Source: a virus (Duplodnaviria > Caudoviricetes). Taken from it: DNA of 64,000 nucleotides. Shown one piece after another: positions 41,476-48,023 of the stretch (the first letter of the stretch is position 1; the number at the start of each line of letters is the position of its first letter). The notes under the pieces are model-generated. The model worked only from the letters and a program-made list of their open reading frames with translations. It searched no databases and was not told the origin of the DNA. The position numbers were made by a program, and so were the translations under genes. Where the stretch lies: positions 160,001 through 224,000 of the IMG/VR virus record IMGVR_UViG_3300037067_016777. The stretch is one strand, 5' to 3'.

Positions 41476-42030
41476 ATGGATCTACGTGACTTATCTAAAT
41501 CGATGGTGTTATTCGAGAATCGCCATAAAATTATTGACTCTCTTGATAGTATATTGCAGCAGATTGGTGTTCCGGCCGATCTGATAGGAGGAGTAGCGTT
41601 AGGCTCGTATAATTATACTAGGAACACTGAAGATATCGACATACTAATTGATAGATCTGATTACGATAAAGTAGCGAATGTAATAATCAATAACGGTGGT
41701 AGTAGTTTGGGTAAGAATAATAAGTTCTATTTATCTGGCTATACTGTCCAAATCTGTTATAGTGGTCTTAAGGTTCGGCATACTACATTCAAGAAACCAT
41801 CTAACGCTGAACCTGGGTTGAAGGTAATAGGCTTACCACAATTGCTATTGATGAAGATTGAAGCCGGCATTAGTCAATTCAGACATCGTGCAGATTTTAT
41901 AGAGCTAGTTAAGAGGAATAACATTTCATTGCAATATTTAGAGGATCATGTTTTTGGCTCATTAGATAAGATGGCAAGAGCCCAAGCAATTGAATTATGG
42001 AAAAGGGCACAAAGCGAACTTGATGAATGA
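41476..42030 (+). CDS. Nucleotidyltransferase (AbiEii/MenT/DUF6036-like, Pol-beta fold)
   Basis: LIGGVAL..Y...RNTEDIDIL, LLLMKI, RHRADFIEL. Confidence 0.8.
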   Translation: MDLRDLSKSMVLFENRHKIIDSLDSILQQIGVPADLIGGVALGSYNYTRNTEDIDILIDRSDYDKVANVIINNGGSSLGKNNKFYLSGYTVQICYSGLKVRHTTFKKPSNAEPGLKVIGLPQLLLMKIEAGISQFRHRADFIELVKRNNISLQYLEDHVFGSLDKMARAQAIELWKRAQSELDE

Positions 42031-42033
42031 TAT

Positions 42034-42105
42034 GCGGTCTTAGTGTAGTGGTAACACATCAAGCTACCAGCTTGATAACGGGAGTTCGATCCTCGCCAGG
42101 CCGCT
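42034..42105 (+). tRNA. tRNA-Gly(ACC), no encoded CCA, bulged T-stem
   Basis: Acceptor GCGGTCT/AGGCCGC; D-stem GTGT/ACAC; anticodon stem TCAAG/CTTGA with loop CT-ACC-AG; GTTCGATC T-loop; discriminator T. Confidence 0.8.
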
Positions 42106-43710
42106 TTAATTAATCTGTTTTATAAACCTAATAACTGGCATACCGTTTATTTTAATTAAACCAGCCGATTCGGCATATTCTTTTTCTGACATTCTTATTC
42201 GTTTCGCCTGATCCCACACAGTTTTCTTGTGATATCTGTGGCCATTGGCGTCGATATACCAATAGCTCGGTTTTGTTCGACCATCAAGAATCCATCCTGC
42301 AGCCTTGTATATAACTCCACTATGATTTGCTCCAACGTCTGCAAAAGAAATAAGACATTTGATGTTGTTTGGAATTAGATTGACAGAATGGGCTAAAAAC
42401 CAAGATGCGAAATTCTTCTTGTGGTAGCTTGGATGTATGCAAAATCTATCCAATTCTAATATTGATGTTGTTGGCAATTTTAATCGGTCCGCCGATTGCT
42501 TTCTTGTTACCGAATTGAAGCTAGTGCAGGCTATTAGCAAGTCGCCAACAAACGCACCTATTTTTAGTCCGCCTCTACTTTTTGATAGATAATGGTACTG
42601 ATTTAGGAAGGTGTTTGACTCTTCGGATTGTATTAGTCTGATTTCGACATTGTTAAAGTCAAAAATTTCTTGTTTTGGCTCGATGCTAAGAATCTTAGAT
42701 ATACGATCGCGAATGCAATTAATACCATAAAACTCATATTCATATATATAATGTAATTCATATTCTTTAGACAAATGTCTTTCCCAATAAGTGTGTTTTT
42801 GCTTATCTCGCAACTGTCTTTCTGGTCTCGAATGCCAGTAACTTCCTTGACACTCAATAAGTATTCTGCGGCCATTATATTCAAAGCCAATATCAAAAGT
42901 CCAAGGACCAAGTGCAATCTGTGTAGCATTGATATTATAGACATCCTTCAATATTGAAATAATAATTGTTTCTAATATTGAAGTTTTCGGTTGCTTTAAC
43001 TTGGCTATCGCCTGCTTTGACTGATACGAAGAGTTAGACCAAAGTTTTTTAGATGACTCAGATATTTTTTGGCGATATTCTTCATTTTCCCAAATCTTTT
43101 TCGATCGCTCTGATTGTTGAAAAGCGACGACTGGATCTTTAAACGCTAGTTTTATTGCATTAGATGTTTTTATGCGATATTGGCGATCTGCCCATAGCGC
43201 TTTAGTTCGTACTATATTGGCATTTTTAACTTCTGGCTTATTTAGTGCTTTCTTGACTGCAGCGGTATGTCGTTTCTTTATTTCTTCGTCCGTTCTACAT
43301 CTAGACAATGTTTCAACTGCTTTATTATGATCGTTTTCCCTTAACATCCTTTTCTTTTGAGACATAGACTGTTTTTTGCGATATTCTTCAGATTGCATAA
43401 TATAATTGCATTTTTCTCTGAAGAGTTTATTGCTATGTAGCTGTTGTGATGCGATTTGCATATTTTTAATAACTGACGGCTTTTTGCAAGACTTCTGAAT
43501 AGCAGCAGTTGTGCGCTGCCTGAACTCACTGTTCTGCCATTTTAATTTACACCCCTCAGATGGTGTTCTTGTCTGTATATTGAATTTTTTAAGCCATTTG
43601 CCTATACACCTGTTGCCGACACTGCATATTTCGGCTATCTCATTAATACTGAACATTTTTTGTTCGTAGTGTTCAGACAGCCAACCACGGTCCTGGTATA
43701 ATTTAGCCAT
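42106..43710 (-). CDS. Endonuclease (HTH + NUMOD-like repeats + Vsr/DUF559-like domain) fused to a Mom-like GNAT domain
   Basis: FDIG...LIECQGSYWH...RDKQK; YHYL, LELDRFC, ISFAD...HSGVIYKAAGW. Confidence 0.75.
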   Translation of the reverse strand: MAKLYQDRGWLSEHYEQKMFSINEIAEICSVGNRCIGKWLKKFNIQTRTPSEGCKLKWQNSEFRQRTTAAIQKSCKKPSVIKNMQIASQQLHSNKLFREKCNYIMQSEEYRKKQSMSQKKRMLRENDHNKAVETLSRCRTDEEIKKRHTAAVKKALNKPEVKNANIVRTKALWADRQYRIKTSNAIKLAFKDPVVAFQQSERSKKIWENEEYRQKISESSKKLWSNSSYQSKQAIAKLKQPKTSILETIIISILKDVYNINATQIALGPWTFDIGFEYNGRRILIECQGSYWHSRPERQLRDKQKHTYWERHLSKEYELHYIYEYEFYGINCIRDRISKILSIEPKQEIFDFNNVEIRLIQSEESNTFLNQYHYLSKSRGGLKIGAFVGDLLIACTSFNSVTRKQSADRLKLPTTSILELDRFCIHPSYHKKNFASWFLAHSVNLIPNNIKCLISFADVGANHSGVIYKAAGWILDGRTKPSYWYIDANGHRYHKKTVWDQAKRIRMSEKEYAESAGLIKINGMPVIRFIKQIN

Positions 43711-43847
43711 ACAAATATATTTGGGTGTTTGGTGCTATAATGAATTGTTTAGTTTATTTACCTTTTGAGCTAAAAGCGGACGTAATGAAAAGATATGCAT
43801 CGCTGTGTTTGTGTGTTCGATGAAACGGTAAAAGAGGATTTGATGTT

Positions 43848-44555
43848 ATGGCTATTATCGGACCGAACGATTTGCCGGTGGTTTTGAAGCTGAACTCAGA
43901 TCCAATGAAGGCTTACTGTTTAGCTCAACTCGGCCACCCGGCAGTTGCCGTTGAAATCGAGGAAGCCCAATTTGAGATAGCATTGCGCGTTACGTGCGAT
44001 TTTATAGCCGGATATTTCCCAAGAGAACAAAAACTAAAACTATTTTATACTGAACCGTTGGTTGCAACATACCCAATGCCAGACGATGCTTATTGGATCC
44101 AAGAGGTCCAGTGGGATCCTGTCACGACTAGGATAGATGATGTGTTTGGAGCTGAGAGTTTCCTCTTTTGTGTTGCTGACAATCTTAAGATTCTTGATAA
44201 AGACAATAGATTGCAGCCTGTTTCAGATTGGAAGACGCATTGGAAAGCTAAAACTCCATTTGGTCGCCGAACGCTAAAGATTGTTAAGAGGAAGATCGAT
44301 AGAACAATGCCGAAAAGGCGATTATTCTATGGTAATGGAATGATAGAAGCTACAACTAGTCATGTGGTTAAAATTGGCGGTAAGTGGCGTGAATTCGGTG
44401 AAGTAAATATTGGCGACCGTGTGCACGGGGTCAAAGATATGTTTGGGATACAGAATGTCGAGTGTTTTGAATCAACAGATGCGATCTCAATCAGAGCAAA
44501 TGGTGCTGGATGCTATTTTGGTTGCACCGAAGGCGAGCCGATCGTTATACACTAG
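43848..44555 (+). CDS. Neck protein (gp13-like) N-half fused to a Hint/intein-like domain
   Basis: Residues 1-107 include YCLAQLGHPAVAVEIEEAQFE. From Cys108 (44169): CVADNLKI, IEATTSH, WREFGEVNIGDRV, CYF, IVIH-stop. Confidence 0.8.
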   Translation: MAIIGPNDLPVVLKLNSDPMKAYCLAQLGHPAVAVEIEEAQFEIALRVTCDFIAGYFPREQKLKLFYTEPLVATYPMPDDAYWIQEVQWDPVTTRIDDVFGAESFLFCVADNLKILDKDNRLQPVSDWKTHWKAKTPFGRRTLKIVKRKIDRTMPKRRLFYGNGMIEATTSHVVKIGGKWREFGEVNIGDRVHGVKDMFGIQNVECFESTDAISIRANGAGCYFGCTEGEPIVIH

Positions 44556-45573
44556 ACATAAAGATTCCGCTGAGTTTGATCCAGTTAAATTCACTCCTAA
44601 AACAATCCATAATAAGAAATCAATAGACATCGATCGTCTTATAGATTTCTTCAAATCCGACCACACTCTTGGCGATTGTGCTATAGAGTTTAGATGCAGT
44701 ACTGCTACTATCAAGCGAAGATTAAGGGTTGCTGGTGTAGACACCTCGATCTATAACCATAGTCAGATCGCTGTCGACCGTTCTAAAAAAGTTCGTGCTG
44801 TCGTTCTGCCGCCAGACGAAGAGATTCGCCATATGCTGGTCGACCTAAATTTAGATACCAAAACTGTCGCCGAAGAGTTTGGTGTCCACTTCAATACCAT
44901 AAGGAACATATCTAGGCGACTTGGTATAGAGAAGAATAGGAAAGATGTGGCAAAATCGATGAGTGTTAGACACTTAAAGATGCATGGTTATAGACATCCA
45001 GCACAACGTCCGGACGTTTTAGCCAAAACGAGGAGATCCAGTGGTAGAGTAAAGTATAGCGATATTAACGGCCGCACTTTTTTGTTCCGTTCACTGCATG
45101 AGCTTGGATATGCGTTGCTGCTAGATAAACGTGGTGCGGAATGGCAATATGAAGAGATGCATGTGCGTTATATCGATATGTTGACGGGAAAGCAGCGGAT
45201 TTACGTTATCGATTTTACTGTGGAATCTAATGGGCTGGTTGAGTGGATTGAGGTAAAACCGAACAACAAGATGATACCGGACGACAAAAGAATATATGCC
45301 AGTAGGAGAGCAGAAGATGCTGGTGTCGTTTATCGCGGATTAGTCGAGGAAGAGAGGCTAGAACTATGGGAGCTGTTGAAATCTGGTTACCGTCAAGAAT
45401 TTATACAATTTATGTTCCTCGCACCTAATCGCAACGCAAAACAGATAAGTTATTGGTTTAGTAGTAGTAAAGATGCTACTGAATTCAAGCTTGATGGATG
45501 GCGTAGACATAATATGCGCGATTATGGAACAGCACTACACACAGTGGTTTTCAGGCGTATTGAACAATTATGA
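44500..45573 (+). CDS. HTH-containing TnsA-like PD-(D/E)XK (homing-type) endonuclease
   Basis: Two HTHs, HPAQRPDV, FRSLHE, WQYE, YVIDF, IEVKP. Start uncertain. Confidence 0.75.
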   Translation: MVLDAILVAPKASRSLYTRHKDSAEFDPVKFTPKTIHNKKSIDIDRLIDFFKSDHTLGDCAIEFRCSTATIKRRLRVAGVDTSIYNHSQIAVDRSKKVRAVVLPPDEEIRHMLVDLNLDTKTVAEEFGVHFNTIRNISRRLGIEKNRKDVAKSMSVRHLKMHGYRHPAQRPDVLAKTRRSSGRVKYSDINGRTFLFRSLHELGYALLLDKRGAEWQYEEMHVRYIDMLTGKQRIYVIDFTVESNGLVEWIEVKPNNKMIPDDKRIYASRRAEDAGVVYRGLVEEERLELWELLKSGYRQEFIQFMFLAPNRNAKQISYWFSSSKDATEFKLDGWRRHNMRDYGTALHTVVFRRIEQL

Positions 45574-46586
45574 TTGACAGAACACTTAAACAGTTTTTTA
45601 CACATGATTACGATTTACTTCTACCAATTCTGGTCTCTTATCCGATAAGAGAGCGGCTAGTTATTGATCCATTTGCTGGTGAGCAACATTTATTGCGGTT
45701 AGTAGATTGCGATAAGATTGCAGTTGATGTTGATGCATCTGTAAATCCAGACATTGTAGCTGACTCATTTAACGAGTTGCCAAAGTTTGAATCGTGTGCG
45801 GTTATAACAAACCCGCCATACGCTCATTGGCACATTTTGCAGCGCGAAAATCAGAGACTAGCGGAAGCTGTGATGCTCGCCGGATATGTTGATTTATATG
45901 AATATAGTATTAGGCGGGTGATCGATCAGTTAGGATTTTGCCCGATCTATGCAATCTTGCCAGAGAATTTTATTGCGTCTAGGACTACCAGACTAAGGCG
46001 TGAGTTGTATAAGCATATCAAAGTAGTTCAGATTCATACACGCTCGTTATGTGACGATACAGAACAGCCTACTGTTTTTGTAGTATTGACGCCGGAGGAG
46101 ATTGATGACACCGATTTGTGGATAGATGATAAATTTACAGCCAAGATTTTAATAACGGCAGACGGATTACAGCCGCGATTAGAGGCAATCGGTGACTATG
46201 TTGACTTTGGTATGAAACCTTGGCAAACAGAGGAACAACGCAATACTTCTATATTACTTAAGGCAACTGATGGTGGTTCTGAGAACAACCGTATTAGGCT
46301 GATGACAGTAGCGGAACAATTTCCGGGTCTACGTCATTTCCATAACAAAATTAGCGATAGAGCCTATATTCAAATAGTACCAAAGATAGAATTATCTGAT
46401 AGCCAAATTGAATTACTAAAAATGGCTTTTAATAGGTGGGTAGATAAGTGGAGGAGCGATACTTTTGGACTCGGCCTGACTTCATTTAGGAATAACTCTA
46501 ATGGATTCAGAAGGAAGAGACTAGATTTCAAATTGGCAAGATTAGTGCTAAATAACTTGATCGATAAGCTTCTGCCTCATCGCTGA
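45570..46586 (+). CDS. Amino (N6-adenine) DNA methyltransferase
   Basis: QFFT, IDPFAGE (motif I), ITNPPY (motif IV). Confidence 0.85.
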   Translation: MIDRTLKQFFTHDYDLLLPILVSYPIRERLVIDPFAGEQHLLRLVDCDKIAVDVDASVNPDIVADSFNELPKFESCAVITNPPYAHWHILQRENQRLAEAVMLAGYVDLYEYSIRRVIDQLGFCPIYAILPENFIASRTTRLRRELYKHIKVVQIHTRSLCDDTEQPTVFVVLTPEEIDDTDLWIDDKFTAKILITADGLQPRLEAIGDYVDFGMKPWQTEEQRNTSILLKATDGGSENNRIRLMTVAEQFPGLRHFHNKISDRAYIQIVPKIELSDSQIELLKMAFNRWVDKWRSDTFGLGLTSFRNNSNGFRRKRLDFKLARLVLNNLIDKLLPHR

Positions 46587-47303
46587 CTCGCTTAATTCAG
46601 CCAACCGCGAGACATAGGCGTTCTGACACTGGTTAGCAGCATCAATCTTTGCTTGATCGACCTCGATACCATCACAAATAAATATGAATTTATCGTTAGG
46701 TTGTGCTTGAGCACACTGTTGCATACTTGTTTTTCTATCGCCCTGGGAACCGCCGTCTGAATCGCCATAGCGAAGATATAACCAAATTCGTTTATTTCCG
46801 AATATAATCACACCATCAGGTTTGGTTGGCAGTCCGCTGTCTTTTGGCTCTCCGATTTTTAGTTGACAGAATGGCGGCGACATTTTCGAGAACACGTTCC
46901 TGACAGCACCTTTTTGGTCGCTCGATTTTTTGTTGCCATTTGTAGATCGTTGGCTGTTATAGACTACAGTTACAACATGATGTCTGATTTGATCATAGGA
47001 TAAATTCAGAGATTCAAACTCCTTGATGATTTCGTCGTCAGAGATCGAATATCCATCTTTGCGTGCTTTTTGACAACTTGTTCCGTTCGAGCCCAGAGCC
47101 ACGAGCATAATATCTATAGCTTGTATCTGCGCTCTCGGGTCTGTTCTGTACTTCCCAAAGTACAGCATTGATGCAATAGTGTTAATCATTTTGGTGTCAT
47201 AAATTATTCTATATCTGTACCCCGGAGGGAAACCGATCGAAGTTAGGTCGATTGCAACCGCGCTAGCTGCTAATGCTGTAGCCTTACGTGCTTTCTGTGC
47301 CAT
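46548..47303 (-). CDS. Putative restriction endonuclease
   Basis: KPDG...YLRY.DSDGGSQ...FIFICDG; convergent with the MTase. Confidence 0.55.
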   Translation of the reverse strand: MAQKARKATALAASAVAIDLTSIGFPPGYRYRIIYDTKMINTIASMLYFGKYRTDPRAQIQAIDIMLVALGSNGTSCQKARKDGYSISDDEIIKEFESLNLSYDQIRHHVVTVVYNSQRSTNGNKKSSDQKGAVRNVFSKMSPPFCQLKIGEPKDSGLPTKPDGVIIFGNKRIWLYLRYGDSDGGSQGDRKTSMQQCAQAQPNDKFIFICDGIEVDQAKIDAANQCQNAYVSRLAELSESAMRQKLIDQVI

Positions 47304-47330
47304 GAGATTAAAGATAGAATGGAGGTTGTT

Positions 47331-48023
47331 ATGAGACTAATAATTGTACCGTTTGTAAGCGTGTCGGCCTTCTCTGATATAAATACTGGCGATCTATTCC
47401 TATCAGAGAAGGCTTATGAAGAGAAACAGGAATCTCTTATAAGGCATGAGCTAGCACATTTATATTCGAATGACCCCGACCACGGCAAAATGTGGTCCGA
47501 GTTAGCAGAGCAACCACTACCAACGGTCGACTTGTTTAAGAAGATGCGAAAGCGGCTTGGCATTCCACAACATATTGCTGCGAATATAGGCAATATTTCA
47601 GGCGTTCAAAACATACTCACAGATTATTATCTTTTACAAGCTTATCGCCGTTCTTCACAACAAATTCTTGGGACTATCGGACACTGGGAAGTTTTAAATG
47701 AAGGTGGTAGTGGCCCAACAAACCAGCTGATTCGATTATATCCAACACCAAAGGGCGCATTTCCGGTTGTGGTTGTTTATTATCCAACAATTACACATTT
47801 CAGAAGTCCCCAAGCGCGTATGCTGGCTTCCGAAATGCTGTTGGCTGAAACGAAAGTGATGGTCGGTGCTGCACGTAGAAAAATCGCTGGTATACCTATG
47901 CCAGACGGTGGTAGCCTAGCACTAGACGGCGAGGCATTAGTCGCAGAAGGAAAAGAAGAGAAAGCTGCCATCATAGAAAAGGCTATACATTTGGGAGAGC
48001 CTATGGGTTTTGTGAAAGCATGA
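47331..48023 (+). CDS. HExxH metallopeptidase-like domain fused to the neck protein C-half
   Basis: GGAGG RBS; LIRHELAH...DHGKMW; then IRLYPTP, GAARRKIAGIPMPDGGSLALDGEALVAEGKEE (gp13-like C-terminus). Confidence 0.8.
   Translation: MRLIIVPFVSVSAFSDINTGDLFLSEKAYEEKQESLIRHELAHLYSNDPDHGKMWSELAEQPLPTVDLFKKMRKRLGIPQHIAANIGNISGVQNILTDYYLLQAYRRSSQQILGTIGHWEVLNEGGSGPTNQLIRLYPTPKGAFPVVVVYYPTITHFRSPQARMLASEMLLAETKVMVGAARRKIAGIPMPDGGSLALDGEALVAEGKEEKAAIIEKAIHLGEPMGFVKA

Follow-up and report, generated by a model that had tools for sequence, protein, structure and literature searches.

A bulged tRNA-Gly(ACC) gene beside a Mom-domain gene in a jumbo phage, and its possible role as a glycine carrier

Why should a phage carry a glycine tRNA with the anticodon ACC, whose adenine at position 34 is avoided by cells? 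The question is raised by a 72-nt gene at positions 42034–42105 (+ strand) of a stretch of 64,000 nucleotides, referred to here as the window, which corresponds to bases 160001–224000 of a 269-kb IMG/VR record. The record represents a jumbo phage (CheckV 74% complete) that was seen in the groundwater metagenome from which it derives; three landfill metagenomes also contain it at low depth, and no RNA run was among the sequencing runs listed for the stretch. An earlier note on this DNA had called the gene a tRNA-Gly with the very rare ACC anticodon and had proposed either a dedicated decoder for fibre translation or an escape variant of an anticodon nuclease target. As described below, the call stands; the two mechanisms are possible, but they are not the best supported.

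Sequence and structure of the tRNA gene

ARAGORN and Rfam agree on a tRNA-Gly(ACC) at these positions. The score against RF00005 is 38.6 bits, compared with a gathering score of 29. The gene is the weakest tRNA of the phage, since the other three, Leu(UAA), Arg(UCU) and Thr(UGU), reach 64, 62 and 45 bits. The GlyRS identity set (G1-C72, C2-G71, G3-C70, U73, C35, C36) is complete and, like A34, was read directly from the sequence, as the earlier note had stated; charging by GlyRS is predicted. The acceptor stem comprises 7 bp with U73 as the discriminator, the variable loop has 4 nt, the T loop contains TTCGA, and the tertiary positions U8, A14, G18G19, G15-C48, G53-C61, T54-Psi55-C56 and A58 are intact. 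The gene resembles a canonical elongator tRNA in that it forms a cloverleaf with these positions and exceeds the gathering threshold of Rfam. It departs from one in two respects: the T stem is not a continuous run of 5 bp but has one extra base on its 3′ strand, and the anticodon is ACC and not GCC, UCC or CCC.

The extra base is a G at 42095 (+ strand), located between the T-stem pairs 51-63 and 50-64 and treated as an insert in the Rfam alignment; ARAGORN draws this region differently, with a G:G mismatch and one extra C. The anticodon loop (42064–42070, + strand) is CUACCAG, with seven nucleotides, A34 at 42066 and the combination C32/G38. As C32-G38 and U33-A37 are able to pair, the whole anticodon arm forms a perfect palindrome centred on ACC, which RNAfold closes into an 8-bp stem with a 3-nt loop. 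CCA is not encoded, which is uninformative because it is missing from all four tRNA genes of the phage; no CCA-adding enzyme was found encoded by the phage. TadA acts on anticodon loops of the Arg(ACG) type. The loop of the present tRNA carries C36, not G36, and the only deaminase of the phage is a divergent CDA-fold zinc protein of 127 aa (HAE...PCxxC; G000:143214-143534, − strand, outside the window), for which NCBIfam returned no TadA or dCMP-deaminase equivalog match.

The letters themselves appear secure. A separate Logan assembly of the source sample reproduced 41976–43065 with zero differences at a depth of 12, and a contig from a landfill metagenome of another study was identical over 41957–42117, which includes the whole tRNA, at a depth of 2.7. 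Because both give identical letters, A34 is not an assembly artefact. Other contigs in the runs X1 and X4 (groundwater, landfill) match the tRNA (window 42040–42108) at ≥80% identity; these variants carry one additional base within the anticodon loop or directly beside it (C behind 42063, A behind 42065) and join the tRNA to 41418, thereby skipping the 184-aa ORF described below.

Isolated phages gave no match to the tRNA region, nothing resembling the tRNA was found in the tRNA sets of related jumbo phages, and exact-pattern scans of viral and metagenome contigs returned no close relatives. An origin from tRNA-Trp was considered and dropped, as there is only generic D-arm and anticodon-stem similarity to tRNA-Trp and tRNA-Gly(UCC) of isolated phages.

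Glycine tRNAs with A34 in phages and the reading of GGU

According to the literature, no tRNA-Gly with A34 is found in the three kingdoms, where it was ‘never observed’ (PMC7293025), and tRNAGly-ACC is one of eight universally missing, ‘prohibited’ tRNAs, the same set being said to be lacking in phages (PMC8007984). An engineered tRNAGly-ACC, which shares the anticodon with the tRNA described here, was chargeable by GlyRS and a poor ADAT substrate, and its loop was destabilised in simulations (Saint-Leger et al. 2016, PMC4928997).

IMG/VR was searched with a generic Gly(ACC) pattern (GCGG...TRG...YTACCA...GTTCRANYC). Among the matches listed, 80 loci (L100–L179) were analysed with ARAGORN, yielding at least 79 tRNA-Gly(ACC) genes with at least 33 distinct sequences on varied backbones; 13 of these genes were scored with Rfam and reached 42–72 bits. 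With N at position 34, the same pattern provides an anticodon-unbiased viral sample, which consisted of 59 TCC, 20 GCC, 2 CCC and 2 ACC. ‘Very rare’ is therefore an apt description for cells (PMC7293025, PMC8007984, PMC4928997) but not for phages, in which ACC makes up ≈2% of the tRNA-Gly matches sampled. In prokaryotic genomes only 13 of 80 pattern matches were real tRNAs; Gly(ACC) is consequently far denser in viral DNA. We found no description of a recurrent phage tRNA-Gly(ACC) in the literature, and the recurrence of canonical representatives (for example at L100, L101, L107 and L151) contradicts the published view that phages lack it (PMC8007984). Huge phages also contain other A34 tRNAs counted as ‘universally missing’, namely Ser(ACU), Ser(AGA) and Leu(AAG). 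A copy of tRNA-Ser(ACU) at L092 (G009:160691-160775) scores 56 bits and has the loop UUACUAA; further A34 tRNA sites are L098 (G008:44168-44249) and one locus each among L100–L179.

Among the ACC matches listed, the loop was UUACCAA in 48 of 80 and CUACCAG in 29 of 80. Both keep a potential Watson-Crick pair between positions 32 and 38, like GCC-type loops, so that C32/G38, correctly noticed before but taken to be unusual, is a recurring trait. The canonical phage Gly(ACC) tRNAs thus have the anticodon, and about a third of them the loop, in common with the tRNA under study. They differ from it in their continuous 5-bp T stem, their scores of 49–72 bits, an often encoded CCA and their hosts, which among the matches listed are mostly GGT-rich phages (49–77% GGT) and mostly have no Mom gene; the exceptions in GGT content among those sampled are L103 and L111 with 18–20%. 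These canonical tRNAs look like real GGU decoders.

Could the present tRNA be a dedicated decoder as well, reading GGU through A34:U3, and perhaps other GGN codons, for a GGT-rich proteome that includes collagen-like fibre genes? Several observations speak for it. GGT is the commonest glycine codon of the phage (40% over 267 ORFs). The earlier statement that it prevails in the collagen genes is borne out by codon counts, with 46–69% in the three largest collagen-like G-X-Y tracts and 31–39%, still the commonest, in two smaller genes. The anticodons UAA, UCU and UGU of the other three phage tRNAs each match the top codon of their family. The loop has seven bases with U33 and A37, and engineered tRNAGly-ACC was active in elongation according to Boren (1993), as cited in PMC4928997. 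Against this stand the lowest Rfam score among the tRNAs of the phage and the fact that close relatives sharing this codon usage and the collagen-like genes manage without the tRNA. Together with the distribution of the T-stem bulge given below, this leaves the decoder a serious but rather unlikely explanation.

The second earlier proposal, a spare tRNA-Gly whose altered loop evades a tRNA-cleaving defence (an anticodon nuclease or a PARIS-, retron- or Schlafen-type system), appears improbable. Loop-altered phage tRNAs that evade tRNA-targeting defences are documented (PMC10264068, PMC11464382, PMC11555353), and A34 and C32/G38 depart from host-type loops; however, nothing here implicates an anticodon nuclease specific for Gly, no defence context came to light, and neither the T-stem bulge nor the position at the stop codon of a Mom gene would be explained.

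Bulged glycine tRNAs, Mom genes and a polymorphic cassette

The tRNA is wedged between two convergent genes. On the + strand, an ORF of 184 aa (41476–42030) ends with its stop codon 3 nt 5′ of the tRNA and shows a sub-cut-off match to Pfam NTP_transf_5 (PF14907; E=8e-4). The two are probably co-transcribed; a promoter/terminator scan found neither a promoter nor a terminator belonging to the tRNA above shuffled expectation nearby. On the − strand lies an ORF of 534 aa (42106–43710) with HNH-endonuclease-like N-terminal and middle parts and a C-terminal Mom (GNAT) domain, which the earlier note had missed. It matches the PHROGs Mom-like (4e-25) and HNH (8e-16) families and Pfam Mom (PF25680; 6e-20). 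Its stop codon and the 3′ end of the tRNA are separated by 0 nt, in convergent orientation. The Mom domain proper extends over 42148–42648 (− strand), and its family profile matches Mu Mom (PDB 8BV8) at 1e-25. R92 and S106 are conserved in the family and align with the Mu Mom residues that we take to be R111 and S124, allowing for a numbering offset of the crystallised chain.

The phage has three Mom-domain ORFs (G000:95309-95764, G000:253490-253927 and window 42148–42648), each being a C-terminal Mom domain behind ≈300–400 aa of HNH-like sequence; the other two have no tRNA. HNH-Mom looks like a selfish, spreading gene family of jumbo phages. The relatives G004, G006, G148, G149 and G165 likewise contain two or more Mom-domain ORFs.

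The extra base in the T stem had been noticed before and read as a defect. It recurs, however, as a purine bulge between the pairs 51-63 and 50-64 (positions 63/64) in seven distinct Gly-type tRNAs. Apart from the present one, of which a uniform structural scan found exactly one in this phage genome, these are L115/L154, L171, L360, L480/L547, L548/L550 and L526/L549; six of the seven have the loop CUACCAG. The tRNA at 42034–42105 exhibits all traits of the group, i.e. the purine bulge, five T-stem pairs, the Gly acceptor, U73, C35C36, CUACCAG and a Mom gene. In an alignment of four diverged members (the present tRNA, L115/L154, L171 and L360) the bulged cloverleaf pairs in 84 of 84 cells, and compensatory changes occur at 13 of 21 pairs, including two T-stem pairs and all five anticodon-stem pairs. 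None of 500 shuffles reached the observed covariation, and slid registers came nowhere near it. By this comparative evidence the bulge is a conserved family trait and not a sign of decay.

The remaining three members, L480/L547, L548/L550 and L526/L549, were recovered by a covariance model; ARAGORN misses them because their D and T loops are non-canonical as well. L547 (G157:6869-6941), L548/L550 (G148, G149) and L549 (G185:2275-2347) combine the bulged T stem with an encoded CCA, D loops without GG and T loops without TTC, and all are located in Mom-encoding phage contigs. As a classifier the covariance model (R1) was rejected: its score does not separate bulged from canonical Gly tRNAs. An explicit structural scan was therefore used instead, in which a candidate needed a flawless acceptor stem of the Gly type, U73, an anticodon stem of 5 bp and C35C36. 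The scan returned four bulged and three canonical tRNAs at Mom loci, two bulged and 30 canonical ones at ACC loci, and no bulged but 56 canonical ones at viral control tRNA-Gly loci (bulged versus canonical, Mom versus control loci, p=6e-5). Hence, the bulge is a feature of neither the 56 control genes nor the 30 canonical Gly tRNAs of ACC loci, which argues against a plain decoder. The sampling leans to ACC, three members having been found by the ACC pattern and the covariance model itself carrying ACC. The family is apparently unpublished.

Six of the seven bulged members are found in Mom-encoding genomes, versus 4 of 76 canonical-ACC contigs among the matches listed (p=4e-6). Moreover, five distinct Gly-type tRNA or tRNA-like genes, two of them without a clean bulge, lie at −110 to +24 nt from a Mom stop codon. 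Besides the present tRNA (0 nt, convergent with Mom) these are L115 (4–8 nt after the stop, same strand as Mom), L013/L496 (24 nt after the stop, same strand), L537 (overlapping the Mom end by 46 nt, convergent, 71% identical to the present tRNA) and L526 (embedded in the last 110 nt of Mom, same strand). In a sixth case, L480, the tRNA is 709 nt downstream of Mom. Non-Gly tRNAs were nearby in only 1 of 80 Mom loci. The loops of the Mom-linked members are CUACCAG, CAUCCAG (no U33), CCUCCGG (no U33, G37) and UUUCCAA; positions 33, 34 and 37 vary, while C35 and C36 are kept. Judged by these loops, the decoding positions of the Mom-linked members are free to vary and the GlyRS determinants C35/C36 are retained. 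The genomes of bulged sisters, furthermore, have GGT shares of 6%, 16% and 32%, which also speaks against the decoder; since the L115/L154 phage is the one with 6%, reading of GGU does not explain its tRNA.

The association has its bounds. ACC in general is only weakly associated with Mom (7 of 80 contigs among the matches listed versus 0 of 50, p=0.04), and the claim is consequently confined to the bulged subset. Most Mom homologues have no tRNA nearby; when the surroundings of 19 HNH-Mom relatives were searched with Rfam at E≤1, the L013 tRNA was the sole match. L171 does not lie next to the Mom genes of its genome, no Mom gene was detectable for L360 (a bacterial MAG), and the neighbours of both gave no Pfam clue. 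Within these bounds, sequence comparison places the tRNA in a conserved family of glycine tRNAs with a bulged T stem that is tied to Mom DNA-modification genes. The best explanation for it is a working but non-canonical glycine tRNA of this phage-borne family.

Synteny with L005, which has 46 nt in its place, delimits a cassette of 1,834 bp (42013–43846) that contains the tRNA and the HNH-Mom gene. The joint of the empty site (42012→43847) was present in three metagenomes at depths of 38, 25 and 4.8 and is deeper than the cassette form. The insertion site is a hot spot: L070–L072 have nothing between a 211-aa ORF and a neck-like gene, L005, L069 and L073 have the 184-aa ORF but no tRNA, and L073/L074 combine the 184-aa ORF with an HNH-Mom gene of 55% identity and have only 39 nt in place of the tRNA. 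As the sister phages and L073/L074 lack the tRNA, only this genotype has it, and HNH-Mom does not necessarily bring it along. The neck/head-closure-like gene is split in the window (43848–44167 and 47583–48005) and continuous in L005 and L069–L074; the 3.4-kb insert (44168–47582) carries an HNH/TnsA-like ORF (44410–45573), a DNA methyltransferase-like ORF (45570–46586) and a − strand ORF.

The tRNA neighbours a homing-endonuclease-like gene in an intergenic hot spot that is hypervariable, is absent from all sister phages and has a low Rfam score. These traits might indicate a functionless gene that is decaying or hitch-hiking, or that is left over from a homing or integration target and was carried along with the mobile HNH gene. 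This is, if anything, a little less probable than an escape variant. Compensatory changes preserve the bulged cloverleaf in members that have diverged strongly, no tertiary or Gly identity position is damaged, and HNH-Mom occupies the site in L073/L074 without the tRNA, which is hence not simply its target site. Least probable is that the tRNA is a partner or substrate of the 184-aa nucleotidyltransferase-like protein (3′-end addition or repair, or a toxin/resistant-tRNA pair), as might be suggested by the weak NTP_transf_5 match and by an ORF that ends 3 nt before a CCA-less tRNA and is probably co-transcribed with it, because the Pfam match is below the cut-off, L005, L069 and L073 have the ORF without the tRNA, and the absence of CCA is common to all four phage tRNAs.

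A possible glycine donor for Mom

The function of Mom itself suggests a connection. Mu Mom is a GNAT enzyme for which Gly-tRNAGly is the glycine source and N6 of adenine in dsDNA the acceptor, whereupon the glycyl group on adenine rearranges to yield 6-NcmdA; it accepts all three E. coli tRNA-Gly isoacceptors and cannot dispense with R111 and S124 (Silva et al. 2026, PMC13219725). Phage tRNA genes are not mentioned in that paper (PMC13219725). The neighbouring ORF resembles Mu Mom in its Mom domain (Pfam 6e-20; 8BV8 1e-25), in which the two essential positions are kept, and the co-substrate of Mu Mom, tRNA-Gly, is the kind of molecule that the gene at 42034–42105 encodes. It differs from the Mu system in that Mu uses host tRNA-Gly of any isoacceptor, while here Mom is fused behind an HNH-like region and occurs in three copies per genome, one of them with an odd tRNA-Gly of its own.

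A dedicated glycine carrier for Mom is therefore our preferred reading of this tRNA, with a probability of roughly one half. The tRNA would be transcribed at the end of a two-gene + strand unit, its CCA would be added by the host, and host GlyRS would charge it with glycine. The Mom domain of the adjoining HNH-Mom protein would then take the glycyl group from Gly-tRNA and transfer it to N6 of adenines in phage DNA, the product being Mom-type 6-NcmdA, which would shield the DNA from restriction. EF-Tu reportedly contacts the T-stem pairs (Sanderson and Uhlenbeck 2007, as cited in PMC7826273). The bulge in this region and the closable A34 loop may keep most of this tRNA pool away from translation. 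That the tRNA is charged, that this Mom domain uses it and that EF-Tu or the ribosome uses it poorly are the inferred parts of the scheme.

A glycyl donor for Mom is the most economical reading. It is supported by the adjacency, the family structure, the link to Mom genes, the biochemistry of Mu Mom and the sharing of one polymorphic cassette by the tRNA and the HNH-Mom gene. There is also evidence that opposes it. The closest relatives, L073/L074, have the same HNH-Mom gene at the same site without the tRNA; a private tRNA is not required, given that every host isoacceptor serves Mu Mom (PMC13219725); the tRNA points towards the Mom gene from the opposite strand and is not co-transcribed with it; and ACC fits GGT, the commonest Gly codon of the phage. 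For these reasons a decoder role, alone or in addition, keeps a real though minor share of the probability, and the earlier idea of a dedicated GGU decoder retains the codon usage and the canonical Gly(ACC) tRNAs of GGT-rich phages in its favour, while the Mom-linked bulge and the sister genome with 6% GGT prevent it from being the best supported. A private supplier of glycine for disguising phage DNA is the more likely of the two.

Two known systems offer parallels. In Staphylococcus aureus, non-proteogenic tRNA-Gly species serving FmhB, FemA and FemB are charged by GlyRS but are poor partners of both the ribosome and EF-Tu (Rietmeyer et al. 2020, PMC7826273); they are reserved for a tRNA-dependent transferase and are set apart by features of their D and T arms (PMC7826273). 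By analogy, the bulge and the closable A34 loop may guard against translational competition. The case is one of analogy and not of membership, for the staphylococcal tRNAs belong to a lineage confined to staphylococci, have UCC anticodons and no T-stem bulge, and serve peptidoglycan synthesis. In the ssrA islands of Dehalococcoides, mom homologues contain a conserved, unexplained 76-bp tRNA-Gly-like ‘pseudo-tRNA’ (McMurdie et al. 2011, PMC3146451). There, too, a mom homologue and a tRNA-Gly-like gene are physically linked within a mobile element. Compared by description only, the Dehalococcoides sequences lie within the first 150 bp of mom, whereas the phage cases are at or over its 3′ end on either strand; the present tRNA belongs to a phage and lies on the strand opposite to Mom, directly against its 3′ end.

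More tentatively, and at less than even odds, phages may have evolved a class of glycine tRNAs that is orthogonal to translation and serves as a private aminoacyl carrier for Mom-type DNA hypermodification. Such tRNAs would meet the needs of GlyRS while combining the A34 avoided by cells, a loop closable through C32-G38 and a bulge at the EF-Tu site. If true, no tRNA class before it would have been devoted to the modification of DNA. The use of Gly-tRNAGly by Mom for this purpose was itself shown only in 2026. For annotators, low-scoring tRNA-Gly calls beside mom genes should not be thrown out as pseudogenes. The finding also bears on the reason for which A34 is excluded from glycine decoding. 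If the link to Mom is functional, it would extend the roles of tRNAs to phage-encoded, non-translational tRNAs for DNA hypermodification, parallel to the cell-wall tRNAs of staphylococci, and would provide a testable system of three components, namely the tRNA, GlyRS and the Mom domain.
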